Source: a virus (Duplodnaviria; Caudoviricetes). From it: a DNA stretch of 61,282 bases. The number at the start of each line of letters is the position of its first letter. Within the stretch, counting starts at the first letter, position 1. The notes below the pieces were generated by a model. It had not been told where the DNA came from and made no database searches. It worked only from the letters and a program-made list of their open reading frames with translations. This document shows, piece after piece, positions 2,785 to 54,284 of the stretch. A program made the position numbers and the translations under genes. The DNA lies in IMG/VR virus record IMGVR_UViG_3300033402_000012, positions 1 through 61,282 of that record, one strand, 5' to 3'.

Positions 2785-3534
2785 ATGAGCGTCCTACCGG
2801 GTGCGCTTCCGAAAGAAGCTATACATAAGATAGGTGTTCTTATTGGATTGGCCTGTTCTGGACGATTGATTCCACCGGAACTTGTGGTTTCAATGTCCAT
2901 GCAACCTAATCCAACCCACTTCTCTCATGGATTTCTAATTGTAAAAGGTCTTCCTGTTGACCAAGCAAGATGTATCTTAGCAGAAAAAGCCCTTGAAGTT
3001 GGCGCAAAGTATCTTTGGTTTGTTGATGATGATACCATTCCGCCACCCAATACTCTACAACGATTGGTTTATGTCTTAGATAACTATCCAGAGATGAAAG
3101 CAATTGGTGGAGTTTATGTGACGAAGGCTCCTGTTCCACAACCAGTTGTGTTTCGTGGAGAGGGATTGGGGTCTTTTTGGCATTGGAAGAAGGGCGAGAT
3201 TTTTGAGGTAACGGGGATTGGGGCAGGTTGTCTTTTAATAGCGACCGATGTGTTTAAGGAAATTCCTAAACCTTGGTTTGAGTTCATAGAGACACCTTCG
3301 TATGACCCAACCATTCCATCCAATTTGGTGAGTGAGGACATAAGTTTTTGTAACAAAGTTCGGGGGGCGGGATACCGGGTGTTCGCACACGGGGGAATTC
3401 TATGTGACCATTTTGATTGTGAAACAGGAAAGACCTATCAAATGGCACCTGACTCCTATCCGATGCGACCAGAAACAACAAGCTTAGCGGACCCCCTCCA
3501 ATTGGAGATTCCGCAAGAATCTAAAATTAAATAA
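2785..3534 (+). CDS. GT-A fold (GT2-like) glycosyltransferase
   Basis: LWFVDDD, GAGCLLI, SEDISFC, CDH motifs. Confidence 0.85.
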   Translation: MSVLPGALPKEAIHKIGVLIGLACSGRLIPPELVVSMSMQPNPTHFSHGFLIVKGLPVDQARCILAEKALEVGAKYLWFVDDDTIPPPNTLQRLVYVLDNYPEMKAIGGVYVTKAPVPQPVVFRGEGLGSFWHWKKGEIFEVTGIGAGCLLIATDVFKEIPKPWFEFIETPSYDPTIPSNLVSEDISFCNKVRGAGYRVFAHGGILCDHFDCETGKTYQMAPDSYPMRPETTSLADPLQLEIPQESKIK

Positions 3535-3546
3535 AGGAAAACAAAT

Positions 3547-4209
3547 ATGCCGATTGTTGCTGCACCATCTCTAAATCTTTCGTACATCGGTCAAGGACCC
3601 ACTGCGGGTGGTCAAATAATCTTTGACCAGACCAGCGGACCAAAGGCCAAAACTCTCTATGCCTATGGCGTAGCCACCAACGGTAATACCACAACGGGCG
3701 CGAACGCGGCTCCTGTTGGGTTTATTGACGGTGTGCAGTCTCTAGGAAAAACCCTTGTCCTCAACCTATACGGTTGTGGTGCTCCGGGTACGGCCCCTGA
3801 TGGAACCGCGAACTGCTCACCTTACTACACTGTACAGGGAGCGACTCAGGTTCTAGTGGGAGATACTGTTACCGTGGCAGGTTTCTCTAACTCCAATAAC
3901 AACATCTCAACTGCGGCAGCAGTTCACGGTGTTCAGAGCGGCGTTATTTGGGTTGCAAACTCGAATTATGCTTCAGCAGGGGCAGAAACTAATCCAGCGG
4001 CCACCATGACTGATTTGCAGAAGTCTGTGCCGATTTGGGTTGATGTGTTCATTGCGGGGAGCAACTCAGACACTCCGGCGGTGCTTGTTGCTGCGGGTTC
4101 TCTTATCCCATCTACAATCACATCCACTGGATTCATTCTCAACTGGACTGCACTCGCAACTACGGCTCAGACTATTCACTTTGGGGCAATTATTGCCTTC
4201 TCAGCTTAA
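3547..4209 (+). CDS. Putative virion/decoration protein (Thr/Ala/Gly-rich, beta-type)
   Basis: Composition and position in the late operon; RBS AAGGA. Confidence 0.5.
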   Translation: MPIVAAPSLNLSYIGQGPTAGGQIIFDQTSGPKAKTLYAYGVATNGNTTTGANAAPVGFIDGVQSLGKTLVLNLYGCGAPGTAPDGTANCSPYYTVQGATQVLVGDTVTVAGFSNSNNNISTAAAVHGVQSGVIWVANSNYASAGAETNPAATMTDLQKSVPIWVDVFIAGSNSDTPAVLVAAGSLIPSTITSTGFILNWTALATTAQTIHFGAIIAFSA

Positions 4210-4238: not shown

Positions 4239-4727
4239 ATGCTATTCCGAAATGAAGGACCCAATCTAGGTGCAACTACCACTGTCAATGAAGTTGGTTT
4301 GAAACCAGCTTCAAATGCTAGCACAGCAGCTAGCGACTATAAACCTACAACCCGTGAAACGGTTACGGTTCAAGTTCCAACCACAGCGGCTTCTTCAGGA
4401 ACCTATTTCTTTGAGGCTCCTTGGAAATGTCAAGTGATTGCGATTCACTTCAATCTAACTGTTGTCTCAACTGGCGCGGCCACCGGATTGATTGAGAAAA
4501 TCGTCGGTGACTCCGTTGTTCCGGCAGCGAGCGGCGCAGGAATCACCGCGCTCCACACTGCTCAAGATTTACATGGCGCAACAGTGAATACCCGCGTTGA
4601 AGAGACTATCTCAGCGACTCCAACTGGCGCAACCCTAAATCCCGGCGACCAACTGGCTCTTTTTACCTCGGCCTCTACTGCTGGAATTTCTGGTTACTTC
4701 CAAGTTGATGTCGTTCAAATCGGGTAA
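4239..4727 (+). CDS. Putative capsid decoration protein
   Basis: Thr/Ala-rich beta-sandwich-like pattern; RBS GGAG. Confidence 0.45.
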   Translation: MLFRNEGPNLGATTTVNEVGLKPASNASTAASDYKPTTRETVTVQVPTTAASSGTYFFEAPWKCQVIAIHFNLTVVSTGAATGLIEKIVGDSVVPAASGAGITALHTAQDLHGATVNTRVEETISATPTGATLNPGDQLALFTSASTAGISGYFQVDVVQIG

Positions 4728-4785
4728 TATCAAAACGCTTCGGGAGTGTGCGTCAACACTCCCAACAATTTTCTAGGAGAGGGAA

Positions 4786-5064
4786 ATGACAACGGAGGAA
4801 ATGATTCAAAAAGTTACCGAACGAAGAGATAGCTACATTCAACAGCGTCTTCAGATGTTCGCCAATGTAAGTGCATTAAATGGAGCGATTGAGGATTGTG
4901 AACACTGGCTAGAGAGATTGGCCGAGGTTGATAAACCCGCAACTCAGGAACCCACTGTGGGTGGGAAATCAACCATGATGTGCTCAATAGGGGCAGCAGA
5001 AACAGCCCCACCCTCAGAGGGTCCTTTGGTGAGCAATGCTACTCTTAATTCTAGTAACGCTTAA
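4786..5064 (+). CDS. Hypothetical coiled-coil protein
   Basis: GGAGAGGG RBS; helical N-terminus ending LNGAIEDCE. Confidence 0.55.
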   Translation: MTTEEMIQKVTERRDSYIQQRLQMFANVSALNGAIEDCEHWLERLAEVDKPATQEPTVGGKSTMMCSIGAAETAPPSEGPLVSNATLNSSNA

Positions 5065-39587: not shown

Positions 39588-39717
39588 CTATCCTCCAAAA
39601 ACAAATTGAGAGAGAAGCCTTCAAGTGCCGTCATCCCTATCCAGGGACGCCACCCGCTGAGTCGTCAGGGTCAGGACGTTGCTCAGGCTTATCCGGCCAG
39701 CTTCTCTCTCAAACTCA

Positions 39718-45907: not shown

Positions 45908-46432
45908 TTAGAAGTCCCTTGGTGGATTATCATATTCTCTTGGGCCGGACATAAACCCCCAATTTAATTGGCCCATATTGGGTGTCGGAAGTGTTTGGGC
46001 GGCGCGCACGTGGGGACCGGGTTCGTCCACTCGCGCTAAATATTCAATGGCCGATGCGTAGACGCTAGAGTCTGGTCCTATAGTAGAAGGCCGGAAGTTA
46101 GGAGAGGGAATTCGCCTACTTTGTCGTGCTACTCTCCTAGTTTGTGGAATCAATCTTCCGAGACTTCCATCTCCTGCAATCAATTGCTTATACTTCGACA
46201 GCCTCTTCCGCGTCCACTTCGGCTCTCTCAACAAAACTAACTTGTGACTCGGAGGCATGAATCGCATCAAGTAGAGAAGTCGTTCCTTTTTCGTCCATTT
46301 ATCCCACTCAGCGGGCAAGGGAGTCTTAGACAAATGACGAGCATAATTCAAGAACATGTATTGAATGGCATCGCCACCCCACTTAATAGCCCCATCTGGA
46401 CGAACTATAATGATTCTGAGTTTGGTGGACAT
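45908..46432 (-). CDS. Hypothetical basic protein
   Basis: GGAGGA RBS; abuts the ATP-grasp gene. Confidence 0.55.
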   Translation of the reverse strand: MSTKLRIIIVRPDGAIKWGGDAIQYMFLNYARHLSKTPLPAEWDKWTKKERLLYLMRFMPPSHKLVLLREPKWTRKRLSKYKQLIAGDGSLGRLIPQTRRVARQSRRIPSPNFRPSTIGPDSSVYASAIEYLARVDEPGPHVRAAQTLPTPNMGQLNWGFMSGPREYDNPPRDF

Positions 46433-47203
46433 TTATCCTCCATAATCATACGCCGGACATCTATTTTCAACCCAAGTCTTGATTCGATTCGCTAACTTTC
46501 GTAACCCCACCGAAGTTGTTGCGCTCACACCCGGCGCAGAGTTTACTTCCAGAACCACGGGGTGGTTGTTGGCTAACATTCCAATATCCACTGCTCCGAA
46601 GTCCAAGGTCAAGCAATTTGTTGCTCGACATGCAATCTCCGCACAACTCTTCAAATGAGTTTCTGGTGGCATATATTCAAACCGCCAGCCAAAATCGTGA
46701 TTGCGCCTGAGTCCATCCCACTGCTCAGGATAGGCCAAAACTTTCTTATACATTGCCAGCGTCTTTCCACGGTAAGTCCACACACGATACTCGTCTCGAA
46801 AATCGAACTTCTGTACATAATAATCCCAACCCCTGCGGAGACATCGTTCAGCATCATTGCGATTATTGCACAAAACAATATCGGTCCCACCACGATGCGT
46901 TCGCTTTCGAGCAAGAATGGGAAACAAAGTCATTTCATCCGTGTAACAATCCATATGAAATGGAACGGGAGCTAAAATGTGTTCTGCTTGAAACTTCACT
47001 AACGCATCTCGCTTATCCACAAGCGTCGCACTTGCGTTTAAGGTCTTTCTACTCGTAGTTGAAGGAGCGCCCCAACACACCGTGGCATCATACGTCTCAG
47101 AAGCATTGGACACAACGGCAAAGTCTCTTTCAAGAAGTAATTCTCGAAGAAAGTTTGCCGTCGGTCTACACCCCTTTCCCCTCTTAATCCGAATTATTGA
47201 CAT
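46433..47203 (-). CDS. ATP-grasp ligase
   Basis: DKRDAL, H.GGTDI, EYRVW, RNH..GW.F, DFGAVD, LEVNSAPG. Confidence 0.88.
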   Translation of the reverse strand: MSIIRIKRGKGCRPTANFLRELLLERDFAVVSNASETYDATVCWGAPSTTSRKTLNASATLVDKRDALVKFQAEHILAPVPFHMDCYTDEMTLFPILARKRTHRGGTDIVLCNNRNDAERCLRRGWDYYVQKFDFRDEYRVWTYRGKTLAMYKKVLAYPEQWDGLRRNHDFGWRFEYMPPETHLKSCAEIACRATNCLTLDFGAVDIGMLANNHPVVLEVNSAPGVSATTSVGLRKLANRIKTWVENRCPAYDYGG

Positions 47204-47211
47204 CTTCCTCC

Positions 47212-48243
47212 TTACTGAACCAATGAACGCTTTTCCATCAAATGATTACCACAACCGCCCTTGTTCTTTTCCGTTGGGCAAGTATACTCATAAGCATTCG
47301 CATTCTTTGGAATCACCCACTCCTTCCCGCACTTCGGACAAACAACCAATTTCTTGTTGCTGTTGTCCTTGTCCTTTTCCTTCGTATCATCCTTCTTGTT
47401 GTCTTTGTGTGTCGAATCAAATCTTGATTGCCTTGAAGAATAGTCCTCATACGTTCGACGATTTGGCTCTGTATAAGACCACTTCAACGCCTTGAACTCT
47501 CGATGGTAGTTAATGAAGTCTCCGTTGTCCAATCTTCCAACGACAGTCAAAGTGTCATTTGCCATTGGCGAGAAAGCTAAATCAGGCCGCTTGACTTGGA
47601 AATGCTGCCCAAATCTCTCAACAAACGGCTTCATCGCTTTGTAAATCGTGTCCTGCTCACTGGCGAACACAAACATATTCTCTGTGCTAGCCAAAGACAT
47701 TGGACTACCACTTCTCAAAAGCAATATACGATGCTTGAACTCAGGATGGAAGACAGCCGCAGCCACACTTCCACAGATTTTGTTGAGATTCTTGTACGCT
47801 TTCTCCGAGAATCCATGTTCATCAATAATGGCTCGGATGATGTCGCTGTCCGTTTCCGCTGACCGCTTTAGCTTCAAATCCTTGAACAACGTGTCATCAT
47901 TAGAAATAACGCCATTGTGAATGACAGCACACGCACCAGAAAACATCGGATGATTGTTCTCATTCTTACGTGGATTGCCTTGTGAAGCCAGTCGCGCATG
48001 GACAATTGCACCCCATGTCGTCGGCTTCAAATTCTCTTCGATGAAGTCTTTGTATCCTTTGGTTGATACAAACCTCCACGGAGCATCATCACTCTTACAG
48101 ACTTGCACAGACCCATCGTCCTGTGACAATGCAACTCCACTGGCATCATTGCCTCTATGTTCATTACCAACTAACAACATGGCAATGGTTTCTTCCTTGA
48201 TTGGTTCTTCACCAAAGCGGATAACTCCGCCTATTCCACAGAT
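47212..48243 (-). CDS. Class II (Ntn) glutamine amidotransferase, apparently starting at ATC
   Basis: CGIGG N-terminus, RG.DASG, HARLASQG, NNHP, HNG.I.N, ETDSD, FASE. Confidence 0.88.
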   Translation of the reverse strand: MCGIGGVIRFGEEPIKEETIAMLLVGNEHRGNDASGVALSQDDGSVQVCKSDDAPWRFVSTKGYKDFIEENLKPTTWGAIVHARLASQGNPRKNENNHPMFSGACAVIHNGVISNDDTLFKDLKLKRSAETDSDIIRAIIDEHGFSEKAYKNLNKICGSVAAAVFHPEFKHRILLLRSGSPMSLASTENMFVFASEQDTIYKAMKPFVERFGQHFQVKRPDLAFSPMANDTLTVVGRLDNGDFINYHREFKALKWSYTEPNRRTYEDYSSRQSRFDSTHKDNKKDDTKEKDKDNSNKKLVVCPKCGKEWVIPKNANAYEYTCPTEKNKGGCGNHLMEKRSLVQ

Positions 48244-48264: not shown

Positions 48265-49977
48265 TTATGGTTCTACAGATTCAAAGTGTCTACCACCAAG
48301 ACCCGGAACGAATACATTTACGCTTCCTGCTCTCGGCAGTGATGTTTCTACAACAGCCTGATTTGTACCACCCCTAATAGTTCCTTCATCTTGTTGTTGT
48401 ACGATGTCCGCTAGTTGTACGACTTCTCCTTCGGGAAATACCGTGTCCACCCGACTTAATGGCTGGACTTCGGGCGGTTCTCCCTTGCATTGAAAATCCT
48501 TGCCAACCAGTTTTTCGTAATTTTCTGCTTTGCAAACTGGTAGGCACCCGCTCTTTACCATCAATCTCCTAATCTCAAGAATAAGGTCCTTCTTGACCTC
48601 ACCATTCCGGTGACAATCCTGTGGAATGTGGAACTCAATGTTATCTGTACTCGACCCAATGGTTGTTCTTAACTGCCTTATTTCCTTACAGTTATCCTTG
48701 ATGTACTTCATCATCGCCTTGCGGTCGAACGCCATCTTGTACGGATGGATAACATGGATACAACCTCTCGATGCATGGTTGTTTATCGTCGCTGTGTATT
48801 GGTAGGCGACCATTCCCTGTGCTGTCTCTGTCGTTCCATAAGAGTGTGGTATTGCACCCACTCGACTGAACCCCGCTGGCATTCTAAAGGGCTTCCACGT
48901 TGGCTCCGGCAAATCCGCCTTGAACGGGATAGCCCCCGTAAACCATCGAAACAACTTCCTCACCGAATCCTCAGATGGTGGAATCACGGGAGGTATGTAC
49001 AAACTCGTTGGATTGAACTTGTGCGAATAAGGAACTAAATTCCAGTTATTCGAGAAGTTTTCCTCTTTGTATTGCGGCCATCCCAATACTTCAAGTGCAG
49101 CCAAAGCTATTCTTGCATCATCATCATCATTCGCATATGACCTAAGCAAATTCTTCATGGCGACCGGGAGGTTTGTTTCTTTTGTCCCAATATTCCCCAA
49201 ATTATGGAACACAGCCAACTTCGCAAATACCAATGTCAAATACGCCGATAACGGTGAGTGCAACCAAGTGGGCATCGTCCGATACTCAAATCCATGTGTT
49301 TGTGTTCGCCAATCCCCGGCTTTTCCATAGTTCGTAACTCTCCGCCGTCTCTGCGAACCCGATGTGTCAATCAAACAAAGTTTCTCTAAGATTGCTGTCA
49401 ACGTATCCAATGATGGAATAATAGACTCAATTGCTCCATGTCTTCGGCCAATGTGAATGTGACCTCCAATTCCATCATCAGCAAATAACCCCGGCGCGAG
49501 TAAATGAAAACGACTCAAGTTCCAAAACTCATTCCCCCAAGCCAACGTATCCATAATACTCGCCACAACTTCTAAAACAAATCGGCTCGGACAAACCCTC
49601 AACTCCGCCTGCCTTCCACTCATATCGCATCCAAGTGGGTCGAGTGTGGACATCCCAACATTCTGAGCATGTATGTAACGATAGCGGTCTTGTAATGCTG
49701 TTCCTGGCGGGAATCCAACTAAAGCGCCCGCAGCATTCCGCAGTGGTTCGCCAAGCACAAACTCTGGGTCGGCCCCTACACAAAACCGATTAACCAATCG
49801 TGGCACAACCGGAAATTTCATGCTTCGGTTCGCATAAAATCTCTTACGCCATTTCTCAAGAATATCCCTTGGCGCTCCTACTCCCGTAGCCATCGCAAAC
49901 TCCAAGAACTTCTTTTCGGTTACGCGATTGTCAACAACTGCCGAGAACAGGCGTCGTTTTTCATCCCTTAGATCCAT
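48265..49977 (-). CDS. phiEco32-like COOH-NH2 ligase type 2, copy 1
   Basis: GADPEF, AELR, GGHIHIG, RR...YG.AG.WR...HG.EYRT; probable ATG at 49977. Confidence 0.88.
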   Translation of the reverse strand: MDLRDEKRRLFSAVVDNRVTEKKFLEFAMATGVGAPRDILEKWRKRFYANRSMKFPVVPRLVNRFCVGADPEFVLGEPLRNAAGALVGFPPGTALQDRYRYIHAQNVGMSTLDPLGCDMSGRQAELRVCPSRFVLEVVASIMDTLAWGNEFWNLSRFHLLAPGLFADDGIGGHIHIGRRHGAIESIIPSLDTLTAILEKLCLIDTSGSQRRRRVTNYGKAGDWRTQTHGFEYRTMPTWLHSPLSAYLTLVFAKLAVFHNLGNIGTKETNLPVAMKNLLRSYANDDDDARIALAALEVLGWPQYKEENFSNNWNLVPYSHKFNPTSLYIPPVIPPSEDSVRKLFRWFTGAIPFKADLPEPTWKPFRMPAGFSRVGAIPHSYGTTETAQGMVAYQYTATINNHASRGCIHVIHPYKMAFDRKAMMKYIKDNCKEIRQLRTTIGSSTDNIEFHIPQDCHRNGEVKKDLILEIRRLMVKSGCLPVCKAENYEKLVGKDFQCKGEPPEVQPLSRVDTVFPEGEVVQLADIVQQQDEGTIRGGTNQAVVETSLPRAGSVNVFVPGLGGRHFESVEP

Positions 49978-50043
49978 TCTTCTTCTCCAACATCCACAAA
50001 GAATACCACCCCGAATACGAATGCTAACACATACCACCAAACT

Positions 50044-50631
50044 TTAGAGCGTGCTTCCATCATCACTGTCTCCTGTAACATATATTGTCTTTGTCAATTG
50101 AAGTGCCGCTTCCAATGCTTCCGGTGTAAAATCCTCATGGCACCACTTGTCAATGCAGTCCCCATCCTTGCACAATGGCACGCCCCACTCGGTATTTTTT
50201 GTTCGCATGTTGCAAATTACACAAACCATATCCTTACGCAAGAGATTGTATGCTCCGACTAGCTTCCCAAAACATCCCGTATCCTCATTGTGAGCATCTC
50301 GAAATGCCTTTGAAAAACTAGATGACGCGCAATACCTACAAACCACAACGGAGGGGACGTTATTCACCACATCTACACCCCAAAATCTGTACTCTGAATT
50401 GTCAAACTCAATCCTTGTATCACTCAAAACCAAATACTGCTTCGCCGTGTATTTTGCTGGAAGAACACTTCTTCCATAGTGATAGTCTCCCCTAAGCACA
50501 TTCAATCGGGTCTTCAATGGAATCACTGGTGGTGTATGGGTATAGACGAGCCTAGGATACGGCTGCAACCTTATCCCGTGTGATACACACGATGCCAATA
50601 TCCGCCATCTTGGGACTTCTACTTGGTGCAT
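50044..50631 (-). CDS. Hypothetical Cys-rich protein
   Basis: Several CxxC motifs; RBS present. Confidence 0.6.
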   Translation of the reverse strand: MHQVEVPRWRILASCVSHGIRLQPYPRLVYTHTPPVIPLKTRLNVLRGDYHYGRSVLPAKYTAKQYLVLSDTRIEFDNSEYRFWGVDVVNNVPSVVVCRYCASSSFSKAFRDAHNEDTGCFGKLVGAYNLLRKDMVCVICNMRTKNTEWGVPLCKDGDCIDKWCHEDFTPEALEAALQLTKTIYVTGDSDDGSTL

Positions 50632-50649
50632 TCTTTCCTTCCCTCACTC

Positions 50650-51238
50650 GAAATTTTGAGAGGCGTGGGCCACTCGGACTTCGTGTGCATAGTTTAGCCG
50701 TTGGCATCCTTTAGGATAGCCACCACGCCCCATCCTTTACCGCCTCTCTAGCAGCCTTTCACCTAGAGCGCAGACGGGAAACTCACTACCTTACCATTAC
50801 ATGCGGTATCGGTAGTGGAGCTGGTCGCGGACCACCACCATCAGCCATTGCAATTAGTATTCAGCCCTTTACAACTAAATTTTTCAGGGGTTCCACTCTT
50901 CTCAACTAAAGACTGAAACCCCCGGTGCCACCAACTACTTATGTTCGCGCGGTCCCTTAGCGTCCCAAGGGTGTCAGTTAGGCAGGTACTTGACCGTCCA
51001 ACGACGGGTTTTCCCCATGTCGCGCTAGCTCCCGAAGACACTTGCGTGCCCTCCACTAGAGCATACCCTTACGGGCGTCGTTCAACAGAATGTCTTGTCC
51101 GTTGAGCGCCACTTCAACGGCTACTCACGCTCCGTCGTTCCGAAGCTAGGCCCATATCTAAGGAGCGACCTTAGAGGCACGGAGTCCGTGGAGACACAAG
51201 ATAACCAGTGTTGCTTGTGTCCTAGCGGGTTCAACGCA
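50650..51238 (-). ncRNA. Candidate large structured ncRNA (about 590 nt)
   Basis: Long gap with no credible ORF, more than 10 hairpins, several GNRA tetraloops and G-U pairs on the - strand. Confidence 0.65.
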
Positions 51239-52162
51239 CTACAGCAACTCAATCTTGACCAAATTACTTGTCACAACACAATGAGCCGAATGGTTTGGCA
51301 AAACCGCATCATCAAACATATACAATGAAATTCCCAATTGAAATTCCGGCCACGAAATCAAATTACCCTTTCGTGAGCGATGCGCGCCCGACCTCTCCGT
51401 TACCGTCACTTGCTCCCAAGTCATTGAATCGGAATCAAGGACGTACTCTGAACCACTGATTGTTGTCGCTTTTATTCGCATAACTAACGACCCTTTCTGG
51501 GTGGGTTAACTTAAATTTACAACTTACAGGCTGCGATGAACCCCCAAATTGAAAGACACAGAATGCTCAATAACCCAAGAATAGAGAAAATTAACAGCAT
51601 ATACTTCACTCGCCACTTCCATTTCAAGTCCCACATAAACTCGAAAAGTTCTTTGTCTGTCATCCTAAAAAAGCCACTTTCGTCGGTTGTGGGATATTGT
51701 CGTGAGATATCCAATCATCGTCTTTTGTGAACTTTCGGACCTCACAAATGCTGACCGGGTAATAGAATCCGTATTCATGGTCGATTCCTACAACCTCAAT
51801 TTCTCCGTCAATCTCTTCTAAAACTCGAATTAAATCTTTTACCTTCATAATCCACCCCCAATGGGTCATAACCTCCGTAGAATTCCTTGAACTAAATGCT
51901 TTATCCAAGCGTGTTTCCCGTGCTTCTTATCGCACAACTTATTTGGAAATCCTTCCCGCAGTACACCACTGGCTACGACCACTAACTCTCCACTGTTCGA
52001 GAAAGGAAATGCGGTTTCTACTAGGTATTTCCAGTAACCTAAGTCGCACTCAAGGTCAGGATGTTCATAAAATCCCACTAAAGTTATAACCACCTTATTC
52101 CCTGTTTCTGCTTCTCTTATTGCATGTGAATGTTCTCTCATCATTAACTCCTTAAAAATCAA
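51239..52162 (-). other. Four small hypothetical ORFs (51239-51481, 51517-51663, 51660-51848, 51866-52144)
   Basis: Co-directional with RBSs. Confidence 0.55.
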
Positions 52163-52170
52163 ATTCCCGC

Positions 52171-52393
52171 TACAGCATCAAGAAACTGTCTCCTGTTCCG
52201 TTGGCCACGTTATGATGAGAGTTAAGAAAATCTAACCGGGGCATCATCCCATCTCATGCCGAATGCCGCCCGAAGGCTGGACTCACATCTTCACAAGACA
52301 GTCCGCACCGATTTTACTTAACGGAGTCTCCATAACAACGACCACGACGGCCAATGACGGAGTTCCCTCCCCGGCCCAAAAAGAGCCGCTGTA
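52171..52393 (-). ncRNA. Candidate structured ncRNA (about 220 nt), rod with branched tip
   Basis: Nested helices TACAGC/GCTGTA, TTGGCC/GGCCAA, GTTATG/CATAAC, GTTAAG-T-AAAATC/GATTTTCTTAAC; cUUCGg tetraloop. Confidence 0.65.
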
Positions 52394-53120: not shown

Positions 53121-54284
53121 TCATGAGCTAATCCCCTTATATCCCGACATCACATATCCATACCACGACAGTTGAGAATGCTTTTCATTGTAGTCATCAT
53201 GTGCGGAATTCCCGAACAGCCAGTTCTTCGTCAAATCCTCCGGGTCGCTCACAATGCTTTCCACGCCATTCATCCCCAAATTAAAAATCGCTTCTCTTAC
53301 CATAATTGTCGGGAAAGCATAACTTTGCACCATCCAAATGAACATATCCCGGTTCAGTTCTAGCAACCTCCGCGCTTGCTTGACATCGCAATTGTTGACA
53401 ATCTCTCGAACTAAATCCTTGTCTGCAACCCACAAATCCCGATACTTCGTGTGCGCCAATTTCACACAAGCCCTTGCGACTTCCCATGTCGCATGGCAAA
53501 TCGCAGGATGGCACAGCCAATAATTCGACAAAACTCTGTACTCCACTCCGAGTAGGTCTTTACCATATTCAGAACTCTTCTTGTACGTTGGCGTCCGATA
53601 TTCCCCCGCTAGCCCATAATACTTTCTCCGAATAGGAGAATCAATGTTCGCGGCAACTCCAACCGCCCAAACAGCCAAAATCGAATCTAGCGTGTTTACA
53701 ATCTTAGCATATTCTGGTGGCTTTTCAGGAAACCATTTTCCAAAATGCAAATGTCCACCAGCAAACCGATACTTTAACTTCCTTGGATTCTCAACCTGAA
53801 TTCCGTGGTCGTCGTAGATATTCTCACTCGGAGAACACCCAAGCGCAACATGTTCTTGCTCGGCACTTAACAACATGGAGTCAGGAATCCTAAGCACATT
53901 TCTCATGGTCAACTTCGCGCCTTTTTCTCCGGCGCGCATTGCCAAGCCTTCCAAACACTTTCGCATCCCCAACGTGAAGTACATCAAGCATTCTTTTGGT
54001 TGAGCGCAAAACTCTGCCTGAAACCCATCCCAAAACGGAGTGCGCTGATAGAAAGCACCTGTTCTATATCCCGTATTGGCCTGAACCTTCGCTTCCTTCT
54101 TCGATGGCAAGAACTGAAATGCCGGGAAAACTTCATCGCCCTTCATCAAGAAGATTTCCGGGTCTGAGCCAATTGAGAAGGAAGTATATTCTTCTCCGGG
54201 AGTGTGCAGGTGAATACTTCTACTACGCACCCACTCCGCTTGATGACTCAACTCCCCTATCGTATTGAAATCAACCTTACTCAT
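53121..54284 (-). CDS. phiEco32-like COOH-NH2 ligase type 2, copy 2
   Basis: GSDPEIF, DGFQAEF, LGC.P..N.Y, RFAGGHLHFG, RRKYYG.AGEYR, GVEYRVLSN.W. Confidence 0.9.
   Translation of the reverse strand: MSKVDFNTIGELSHQAEWVRSRSIHLHTPGEEYTSFSIGSDPEIFLMKGDEVFPAFQFLPSKKEAKVQANTGYRTGAFYQRTPFWDGFQAEFCAQPKECLMYFTLGMRKCLEGLAMRAGEKGAKLTMRNVLRIPDSMLLSAEQEHVALGCSPSENIYDDHGIQVENPRKLKYRFAGGHLHFGKWFPEKPPEYAKIVNTLDSILAVWAVGVAANIDSPIRRKYYGLAGEYRTPTYKKSSEYGKDLLGVEYRVLSNYWLCHPAICHATWEVARACVKLAHTKYRDLWVADKDLVREIVNNCDVKQARRLLELNRDMFIWMVQSYAFPTIMVREAIFNLGMNGVESIVSDPEDLTKNWLFGNSAHDDYNEKHSQLSWYGYVMSGYKGISS

Follow-up and report, generated by a model that had tools for sequence, protein, structure and literature searches.

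The window analysed here, the whole stretch of 61,282 bp, is a complete phage genome with direct terminal repeats. Its rightward arm is structural, encoding a portal, a major head protein, and tail genes, while its leftward arm encodes a DNA polymerase, a primase/helicase, and a Sak4-like protein. The leftward arm also contains the subject of this study, a 607-nt gap (50632 to 51238) located among genes of an amidoligase cluster. We conclude that the central portion of this gap, 50886 to 51164 on the minus strand, is very probably a member of a real RNA family that was previously uncatalogued.

The genes of the cluster are all encoded on the minus strand. Directly downstream of the gap lies the gene of a Cys-rich protein (195 aa; 50044 to 50631), followed by those of a long COOH-NH2 amidoligase (591 aa; 48265 to 50040; Pfam PF14395 at 2.6e-19), a class-II glutamine amidotransferase (GATase; 47212 to 48180; GATase_6 at 2.4e-15), and an ATP-grasp protein (46433 to 47203; RimK/ATP-grasp Pfam matches under the curated cut-offs), the last three with PHROG matches as well. 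On the other side of the gap, a second and shorter amidoligase (387 aa; 53121 to 54284) matches PF14395 at 1.2e-8 and phrog_3815 at 1.8e-31. A preliminary description of this DNA had placed a structured RNA upstream of the amidoligase operon. This position is borne out; since the short amidoligase lies upstream of the RNA, the gap is inside the amidoligase cluster and not merely in front of it. Clusters of amidoligase, GATase, and ATP-grasp genes are noted in several phage genome papers.

The gap had been presented as the largest in a densely coding arm. The lengths agree with this, as the other gaps of the minus-strand arm reach 280 nt at most, but the statement holds only when two unconserved open reading frames (ORFs), 50552 to 50707 and 50841 to 51056, are disregarded; these are the only two of at least 45 aa in the gap. 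A conserved protein ORF was looked for in the homologues and none was found. We also considered a recoded protein gene and rejected it, because all three minus-strand frames carry all three stops under codes 11, 4, 15, and 25.

Folding of the full 607 nt yielded -246.1 kcal/mol on the minus strand compared with -211.5 ± 6.9 kcal/mol in 20 shuffles (z -5.0), and -193.4 kcal/mol on the plus strand (z -2.7). The preference for the minus strand is as previously proposed from GNRA loops and G-U pairs, and all 12 of the named pairs of helix arms are indeed present on that strand, between 50660 and 51226. When the gap was folded piecewise, with 150 shuffles per segment, the core with its 3' hairpin (50880 to 51030) displayed z -3.8 on the minus strand and -0.8 on the plus strand, and the 5' domain (51031 to 51144) displayed z -2.2. 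The corresponding values for the minus and plus strands were -1.5 and -1.4 in the 3' 248 nt (50632 to 50879), and -2.1 and -2.6 in the 5' 94 nt (51145 to 51238). The strand-specific fold signal is concentrated in the centre of the gap, not across 590 nt. Three coding control segments gave z from +1.6 to -3.5; because coding sequence reaches -3.5, z-scores discriminate poorly here, and thermodynamics alone cannot carry the claim of an RNA.

A locus search with a single protein returned nothing, but alignment-based searches did find loci. Amidoligase relatives with 30–43% identity are located on metagenomic contigs of about 60 kb, and an alignment of 31 of them led to 25 viral loci (IMG/VR) and 67 metagenome loci, two sets that overlap. 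As the family was gathered via the amidoligase, its restriction to the amidoligase context is partly by design, and the only independent check is the narrow motif scan described below. Using the RNA of the window as the query, nhmmer matched the region upstream of the amidoligase in L004 and L006 (E 5.1e-8; L004 4282 to 4460), and the same core with different helix sequences was recognised by eye in L002 and L003. From four sequences and a hand-drawn structure we constructed a covariance model, R1, with which 730 kb of sequence yielded 24 matches at E ≤ 0.011, every one on the amidoligase strand. A second model, R2, rebuilt from 17 matches, produced 27 matches at E ≤ 5.7e-9 that represent about 21 distinct sequences and include four lineages outside its seed (L095, L043, L007/L048, and L018/L075). 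Seven weak matches to R2 were obtained as well, including one (L013, E 0.019) on the opposite strand; the E-values of home-made covariance models such as these are rough.

The pairing of the core is well preserved across these sequences. In the R2 alignment, weak rows included, 97.1% of 491 core cells were paired compared with 57.1% in column shuffles, and the covariation score of 0.94, compared with 0.23, was attained by 0 of 500 shuffles. Changes on both sides were seen in all 19 of the 19 core pairs, and pairing dropped to 34–42% when the partner columns were slid by 1–3 positions. The R1 alignment gave 96.3% paired compared with 61.3% in shuffles. Both of these alignments are fitted to a model, and a plain MAFFT alignment of 18 sequences served as the control for two hairpins, termed b and d. 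Here, 87.6% of the cells were paired compared with 59.1%, with 98.9% for hairpin b and 80.6% for hairpin d, the latter figure being flattered by the choice of its columns on the same alignment. Covariation among relatives had been suggested as a check on the RNA, and the relatives covary strongly.

This family is shorter than the RNA that was first described. The versions in L002 and L004 span approximately 240 to 300 nt, and, as judged from the aligned sequences, the conserved extent is about 280 nt (about 50886 to 51164), with about half of the 590 nt, comprising the 5' ~80 nt and the 3' ~250 nt, apparently specific to the lineage of the window. The notion of a single RNA of some 590 nt must therefore be abandoned, as only ~280 nt are common to the relatives and nhmmer found no relatives for either extension. 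Raw calls of structured gaps can overstate length in this manner. The 5' extension (51161 to 51238, minus strand) includes the potential hairpins ACACAAG/CUUGUGU, CACGG/CCGUG, and UCUAAGG/CCUUAGA. The 3' extension runs on the minus strand from hairpin d to the start codon of the Cys-rich protein at 50631 (50632 to 50885) and includes the potential helices CACUACC/GGUAGUG, CCGUCU/AGGCGG, and GGGGCGUGG/CCACGCCUC. At the site of the 3' extension, L033 and L035 have 190–300 nt of extra non-coding sequence that is unrelated in sequence.

The whole RNA of ~280 nt has at least seven helices, all described here 5' to 3' on the minus strand. The comparisons of the 5' domain, as well as the tabulation of helix Px below, are readings by eye of aligned sequences. 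The RNA opens with a conserved motif of the AUGGGYCUUAGCU type (51145 to 51160), identified by eye, with no statistical test, in eight relatives (L002, L004, L033, L037, L041, L046, L055, and L057). In these same eight, the motif is preceded by CCACC and positioned 0–3 nt after the stop codon of the upstream ORF. It is followed by a hairpin with a CAAG-type loop (51083 to 51104), also recognised by eye, whose loop is CAAGACAU in the window, CAAGCCAAUG or CAAACCAAUG in L055, L093, L057, L040, and L032, and CAAUA in L004; this hairpin competes with the previously proposed CCGUUGA/UCAACGG hairpin. Two GNRA-capped hairpins, GCCC-GUAA-GGGU and GCUC..GAGGGCAC-GCAA-GUGUCUUC..GAGC, occupy 51028 to 51076, and both have equivalents of different sequence in L004.

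The core is opened by a long arm (50984 to 51016) composed of helix Px, an internal loop, and hairpin b. Px (GGG/CCU) joins 51014–51016 with 50984–50986. Beside hairpin b, 14 of the 18 sequences listed have GAA(A) opposite (A)AGUA, with the extra A occurring on both strands together, and among these 14 the first Px pair is G-C in eight, C-G in two, U-A in two, A-U in one, and a mismatch in one. The remaining variants are GGU or AGU opposite AAA or AAC (L057, L049, L093) and GAAA opposite AAGGUCA (L078). We take the GAA/AGUA internal loop to follow the loop-E, or bulged-G (sarcin-ricin type), consensus. Together with its covarying flanking pair, it constitutes a putative loop-E-like motif, called from sequence rather than from a three-dimensional form. 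Hairpin b (CCGUC-GUUG-GACGG; 50994 to 51007) has a UNCG-like loop; 100% of its cells are paired in the R2 alignment, and all five of its pairs change on both sides.

In both models, the long arm is followed by helices P1 (GCC/GGC) and P2 (CUGAC/GUUGG), which surround hairpin c with the junction CGAAnAnAA (50927 to 50983). Hairpin c itself (CCCUUGG-GACG-CUAAGGG; 50954 to 50971) has the loop GACG and precedes the conserved junction. P1, P2, and hairpin c are paired in 96.1%, 97.1%, and 95.7% of cells, respectively, with a change on both sides in every pair. Directly 3' of the core is hairpin d (GGGGUUUCA/UGGAACCCC; 50886 to 50923), terminator-like in the relatives, which occurs in 22 of the 22 members examined and has the apical loop UAnUUGRGAG. 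The apical loops of both hairpins c and d are conserved. A long-range pairing of the hairpin d loop, whether to the 5' motif or to the P1/P2 internal loop, was considered and rejected, as L041 and L033 compared by eye are not compensatory.

To place the RNA among known classes, the window was compared with the 4227 models of Rfam 15 by scoring each covariance model against the gathering score of its family. Rfam 15 includes GOLLD, ROOL, OLE, HEARO, raiA, group I and II introns, RNase P, and tmRNA, as well as 6S, pRNA, T-box, glnA RNA, and glmS. At the gathering score there were no matches in the whole window. At E ≤ 10, the region 50300 to 51600 gave two chance-level matches that are off the RNA or antisense to it (CRISPR-DR25, E 7.5; a plus-strand lncRNA, E 8.4), and in L002 to L004 no match at E ≤ 5 fell at the RNA. 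In the loci of eight further members at E ≤ 10, the sole match on the RNA was mcrA (L049 and L087), with 17.4 bits compared with a gathering score of 57.6. ARAGORN called no tRNA and no tmRNA genes in the window; among the scanned RNA-positive loci, only L005 has a tRNA, 3.7 kb from the RNA. These results agree with the earlier failure to match the RNA by eye to known classes. The suggestion that it represents a new class stands if this is taken to mean a new RNA family, but not a functional class.

Sequence databases were also searched for further copies. In 50,697 GenBank phage records, a set from which near-identical records may be missing, nothing was returned by blastn with the RNA, by megablast with an 8.5-kb query, or by tblastn with the amidoligase. 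An exact 22-nt motif scan of viral contigs found the L004 and L006 contigs only. A degenerate motif with two gaps found five stretches in the IMG/VR viral contigs; three are known members, while the other two are one sequence within an ORF on the opposite strand (model E 0.11), so that no confirmed copy outside amidoligase loci was obtained. The same motif found seven stretches in 185,579 representative prokaryote genomes, none of which was confirmed by R1 (best E 0.41). Thus this narrow pattern, which would catch approximately one third to one half of the known members, yielded no copy in bacteria or prophages. The jumbo-phage loci L022 and L026 have no gap close to the amidoligase. Literature searches by title and abstract revealed no RNA linked to phage amidoligase genes; they did yield papers on large ornate RNAs (bioRxiv 10.1101/2024.12.08.627333 and PMC5737381). 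Passages of the LUZ24 paper (PMC10914365) describe a group I intron in the DNA polymerase gene and mention no amidoligase-linked RNA.

The position of the RNA is uniform. In 27 of 27 loci, the core starts 631 to 1642 nt upstream of the amidoligase match and on the gene strand, and the RNA occurs once in the window and once in each of five of five relatives' records of 54–64 kb. The phages that carry the family are uncultured soil and peat phages of about 54–65 kb with one RNA copy each. The cluster order common to the relatives is short amidoligase, p89, RNA, Cys-rich protein, long amidoligase, GATase, and ATP-grasp; small ORFs flank the RNA, and those between it and the Cys-rich gene are present only sometimes. 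In most relatives the RNA abuts ORFs on both sides, and it is not a free-standing gene. At the 3' side, the 10 nt after hairpin d contain a mean of 5.2 U compared with 2.6 expected, often after 1–3 other bases, and a Shine-Dalgarno (SD) sequence with a start codon lies 9–16 nt past hairpin d in 14 of the 22 members and 21–33 nt past it in three more. Where the SD and start codon are this close to hairpin d (the 14 of 22), there is no room for a promoter, and the operon transcript must read through the RNA. This lay-out imposes co-transcription of the RNA with the operon, and in most relatives there is no promoter room on either side.

Not every locus with this operon has the RNA. Among 55 loci with at least 1800 nt of upstream sequence, 21 have a strong R2 match, two a weak match, and 32 none. 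Some of the R2-negative relatives have a non-coding gap of 250–600 nt upstream of the Cys-rich gene (L010 4356–4841, L012 4438–4848, L021 3582–4175, and L015 3891–4143), which may contain a diverged RNA or a different element. L010 also has sequences like the D-arm and T-arm of a tRNA at 3450–3916, not called by ARAGORN, and in L003, 577 nt 5' of the core (4354–4930) are non-coding, with a tandem direct repeat of ~17 nt near 4830–4875. For the window itself, 50400 to 51500 was recovered on contigs from peat metagenome runs of at least four studies, identical without one difference, of which one or two may be the source sample; as the contigs from four peat runs are identical to the window, no sequence variants were gained.

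The Cys-rich protein is the immediate downstream neighbour of the gap and its gene is directly upstream of the long amidoligase in every relative checked. An alignment of 10 homologues (165–195 aa) revealed a conserved protein with the pattern CxxC..H..C..CxxC..C..C. Pfam and PHROG gave no match, the atlas scores were at most 0.82, and Foldseek found nothing in the PDB at E ≤ 0.001 for an AlphaFold 2 model with a predicted local distance difference test score (pLDDT) of 72. Further along the cluster, the GATase ORF (47212 to 48180, minus strand) has a C-terminal zinc-ribbon-like tail with weak matches to Zn_ribbon_recom (E 8e-4, under the cut-off) and to a homing-endonuclease PHROG (E 0.004). 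After the ATP-grasp gene, a 174-aa protein (45908 to 46432, minus strand) has phmmer matches in 12 distinct RNA-positive loci and none in any RNA-negative locus with enough upstream sequence. It has no phmmer match in the RNA-positive lineage L018/L075 and one in L030, which has no upstream sequence in which the RNA could be sought; both relatedness and the reach of searching with one sequence confound this distribution. Elsewhere on the minus strand, 39600 to 39717 contains a 14-bp stem closing a three-way junction, followed by a U-run and GGAGG and then by the AUG start codon of a ~40-aa hydrophobic ORF. Its lay-out of structured RNA, U tract, and SD is the same as that of the amidoligase-cluster RNA, and the whole 377-nt gap in which it lies has a z of only -1.1.

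Our best reading, to which we assign a probability of roughly 40%, is that the RNA is a cis-acting leader in the operon transcript that gates the Cys-rich, amidoligase, GATase, and ATP-grasp genes. A core with a conserved junction, then a hairpin with a U-rich tail, and then an SD and AUG is the lay-out of a sensing leader, from which we infer a role in cis. Conserved nucleotides at a junction, and a loop-E-like motif whose flanking helix covaries, are usual in RNAs that bind a ligand or a factor, and, as in riboswitches, an aptamer-like fold with covariation is found in cis upstream of related genes. The RNA could act as a sensing leader or as an intercistronic attenuator. The multi-helix core, made up of Px, the loop-E-like loop, and hairpin b together with P1, P2, and hairpin c, would serve as the binding site for a small molecule or for a factor from phage or host. 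Its occupancy would determine whether transcription or processing comes to a stop at hairpin d with its U-rich tail or goes on into the ribosome-binding site 9–16 nt away, and the outcome would be the timing or dosing of the amide-ligase genes. Hairpin d is likewise only a presumptive switch point.

Several observations weigh against such a leader. No conserved antiterminator for the 5' strand of hairpin d was found in a crude truncation fold of 19 members, in which its partners scatter from -1 to -115 nt. Conservation of the apical loop in hairpin d is not usual where a hairpin serves solely as an expression platform, and it would suit a constitutive portion of a functional RNA. In the window, the tail of hairpin d has only 3 U in 10, and a simple scan of 50300 to 52300 calls neither a terminator nor a minus-strand promoter. 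The next ORF of at least 45 aa is separated from hairpin d by 190–300 nt in the window, L033, and L035, and the gene directly downstream of the RNA differs between lineages. In addition, the 32 of 55 loci without a detectable copy of the RNA keep the operon and its gene order, and no match suggests any ligand.

Some of the same features would suit a stable non-coding RNA acting in trans, the main rival and only somewhat less likely than the leader, in which about 280 nt are cut or terminated out of the polycistronic transcript and act as a folded RNA or ribonucleoprotein, for example as a scaffold, a decoy, or a partner of the cluster proteins. Such an RNA would begin close to the stop codon of the upstream ORF and finish at hairpin d and the linker, which is U-rich and RNase E-like; a 3' end can be marked by a hairpin that has a U-rich tail. 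The complex fold with several GNRA- and UNCG-type loops, the conserved apical loops of hairpins c and d, the failure to find mutually exclusive pairing, and the variable peripheral domains (from ~240 nt in L002 to a gap of 791 nt in L003), as in large non-coding RNAs, all agree with this possibility. The read-through imposed on the operon in the 14 of 22 members without promoter room before the downstream SD argues against it, as does the presence of the Cys-rich protein in relatives without detectable RNA, so that no RNA-specific protein partner stands out. Alternatively, the RNA may be a non-sensing element of mRNA processing, stability, or translation, its 3' hairpin protecting the upstream message and cleavage or a standby region activating the next cistron. 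The constant spacing of hairpin d, ~10 U-rich nt, SD, and AUG, the position between cistrons without promoters, and the matching lay-out of the second element at about 39600 to 39717 are what such an element would show; we nevertheless regard it as unlikely, since a conserved core of ~200 nt with junction nucleotides and a loop-E-like motif exceeds what we know of stabiliser hairpins and RNase III sites. We consider it still less probable, and speculative, that the RNA is a functional partner of the amidoligase/GATase/ATP-grasp machinery, either as a new riboswitch class for the product of the pathway or as a scaffold or substrate for the ligases, with the loops of hairpins c and d docking.

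The size, the GNRA loops, and the complex fold could also belong to a catalytic RNA, that is, a self-cleaving ribozyme or a self-splicing intron, and the upstream stop codon is directly followed by GUGCG, which presumably resembles the 5' end of a group II intron. This GUGCG sits, however, in the non-conserved 5' extension, and even a threshold of E ≤ 10 gave no match to an intron or ribozyme model of Rfam. A self-splicing intron was rejected, as there is no interrupted gene: the ORFs on either side do not make up a single gene, all 10 of 10 Cys-rich homologues begin with a Met of their own, no homologue of the 80-aa upstream ORF was present in those loci of the relatives that were searched, and the ORFs after the RNA differ between lineages. 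We consider a catalytic RNA highly improbable. Chance structure in an ordinary long 5' untranslated region with no conserved function would be in keeping with extensions that have no relatives and an unremarkable z, and with coding controls that reach z -3.5. For the central 280 nt, it is excluded by the family and its covariation, and we give it next to no credence for the core; for the extensions, 50632 to 50885 and 51161 to 51238, chance structure is possible.

A conserved, intricate RNA fixed in the amidoligase cluster provides a handle on the cluster. We know of no assigned product or target for phage amidoligase/GATase/ATP-grasp clusters. In the case of a riboswitch, identifying the ligand would name the metabolite of the pathway, and in the case of a partner RNA, a new RNA-protein system would be revealed. 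In either case, about 21 distinct sequences that are supported by covariation and carry a loop-E-like motif join the small set of large structured phage RNAs.

Comparison with known systems places the RNA closest to regulatory leaders. Among riboswitch and attenuator leaders with intrinsic terminators, the closest by theme is the glnA RNA, the glutamine riboswitch of cyanobacteria and cyanophages. Like leaders of this type, the RNA is on the same strand as, and upstream of, the genes of one pathway, which here include a glutamine amidotransferase, and it combines conserved junction nucleotides with covarying helices and a putative internal loop of the E-loop type. A hairpin and, in the relatives, a U-rich tract shortly before the ribosome-binding site are further features shared with riboswitch and attenuator leaders. 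In contrast to these, it matches no Rfam riboswitch, its ~280 nt with at least seven helices make it much larger than glnA RNA, its terminator-like hairpin has a conserved loop, and no alternative pairing was found. T-box leaders are similar in length (~250 nt), in a loop-E/S-turn motif (putative in the RNA described here), in a conserved element within the terminator region, and in their association with amino acid-related genes, but no Rfam T-box match was obtained and neither a specifier loop nor a T-box sequence was recognised. The put and EAR antitermination RNAs resemble it in being part of an operon transcript, upstream of terminator-like hairpins and without a promoter of their own; the put RNA of HK022, with two short stem-loops in ~70 nt, is much smaller than the ~280 nt of the amidoligase-cluster RNA.

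Among the large ornate RNAs, GOLLD, ROOL, OLE, and raiA are comparable in being phage-borne and in having a complex fold, many GNRA loops, and variable peripheral domains. They differ in size, with 580–800 nt compared with the conserved ~280 nt, and none of their covariance models matches. GOLLD and ROOL are free-standing and near tRNA genes, while the window has no tRNA genes near the RNA, which is embedded in an operon that leaves no space for a separate promoter; nor was any sign of palindromic loops that form multimers seen in the RNA. The resemblance to GOLLD and ROOL raised in the preliminary description is hence weak, given the lack of a model match, of tRNA neighbours, and of a transcript separate from the operon. 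The RNA is a member of neither group: it works most like a riboswitch or attenuator leader, and its appearance partly recalls that of the large ornate phage RNAs.

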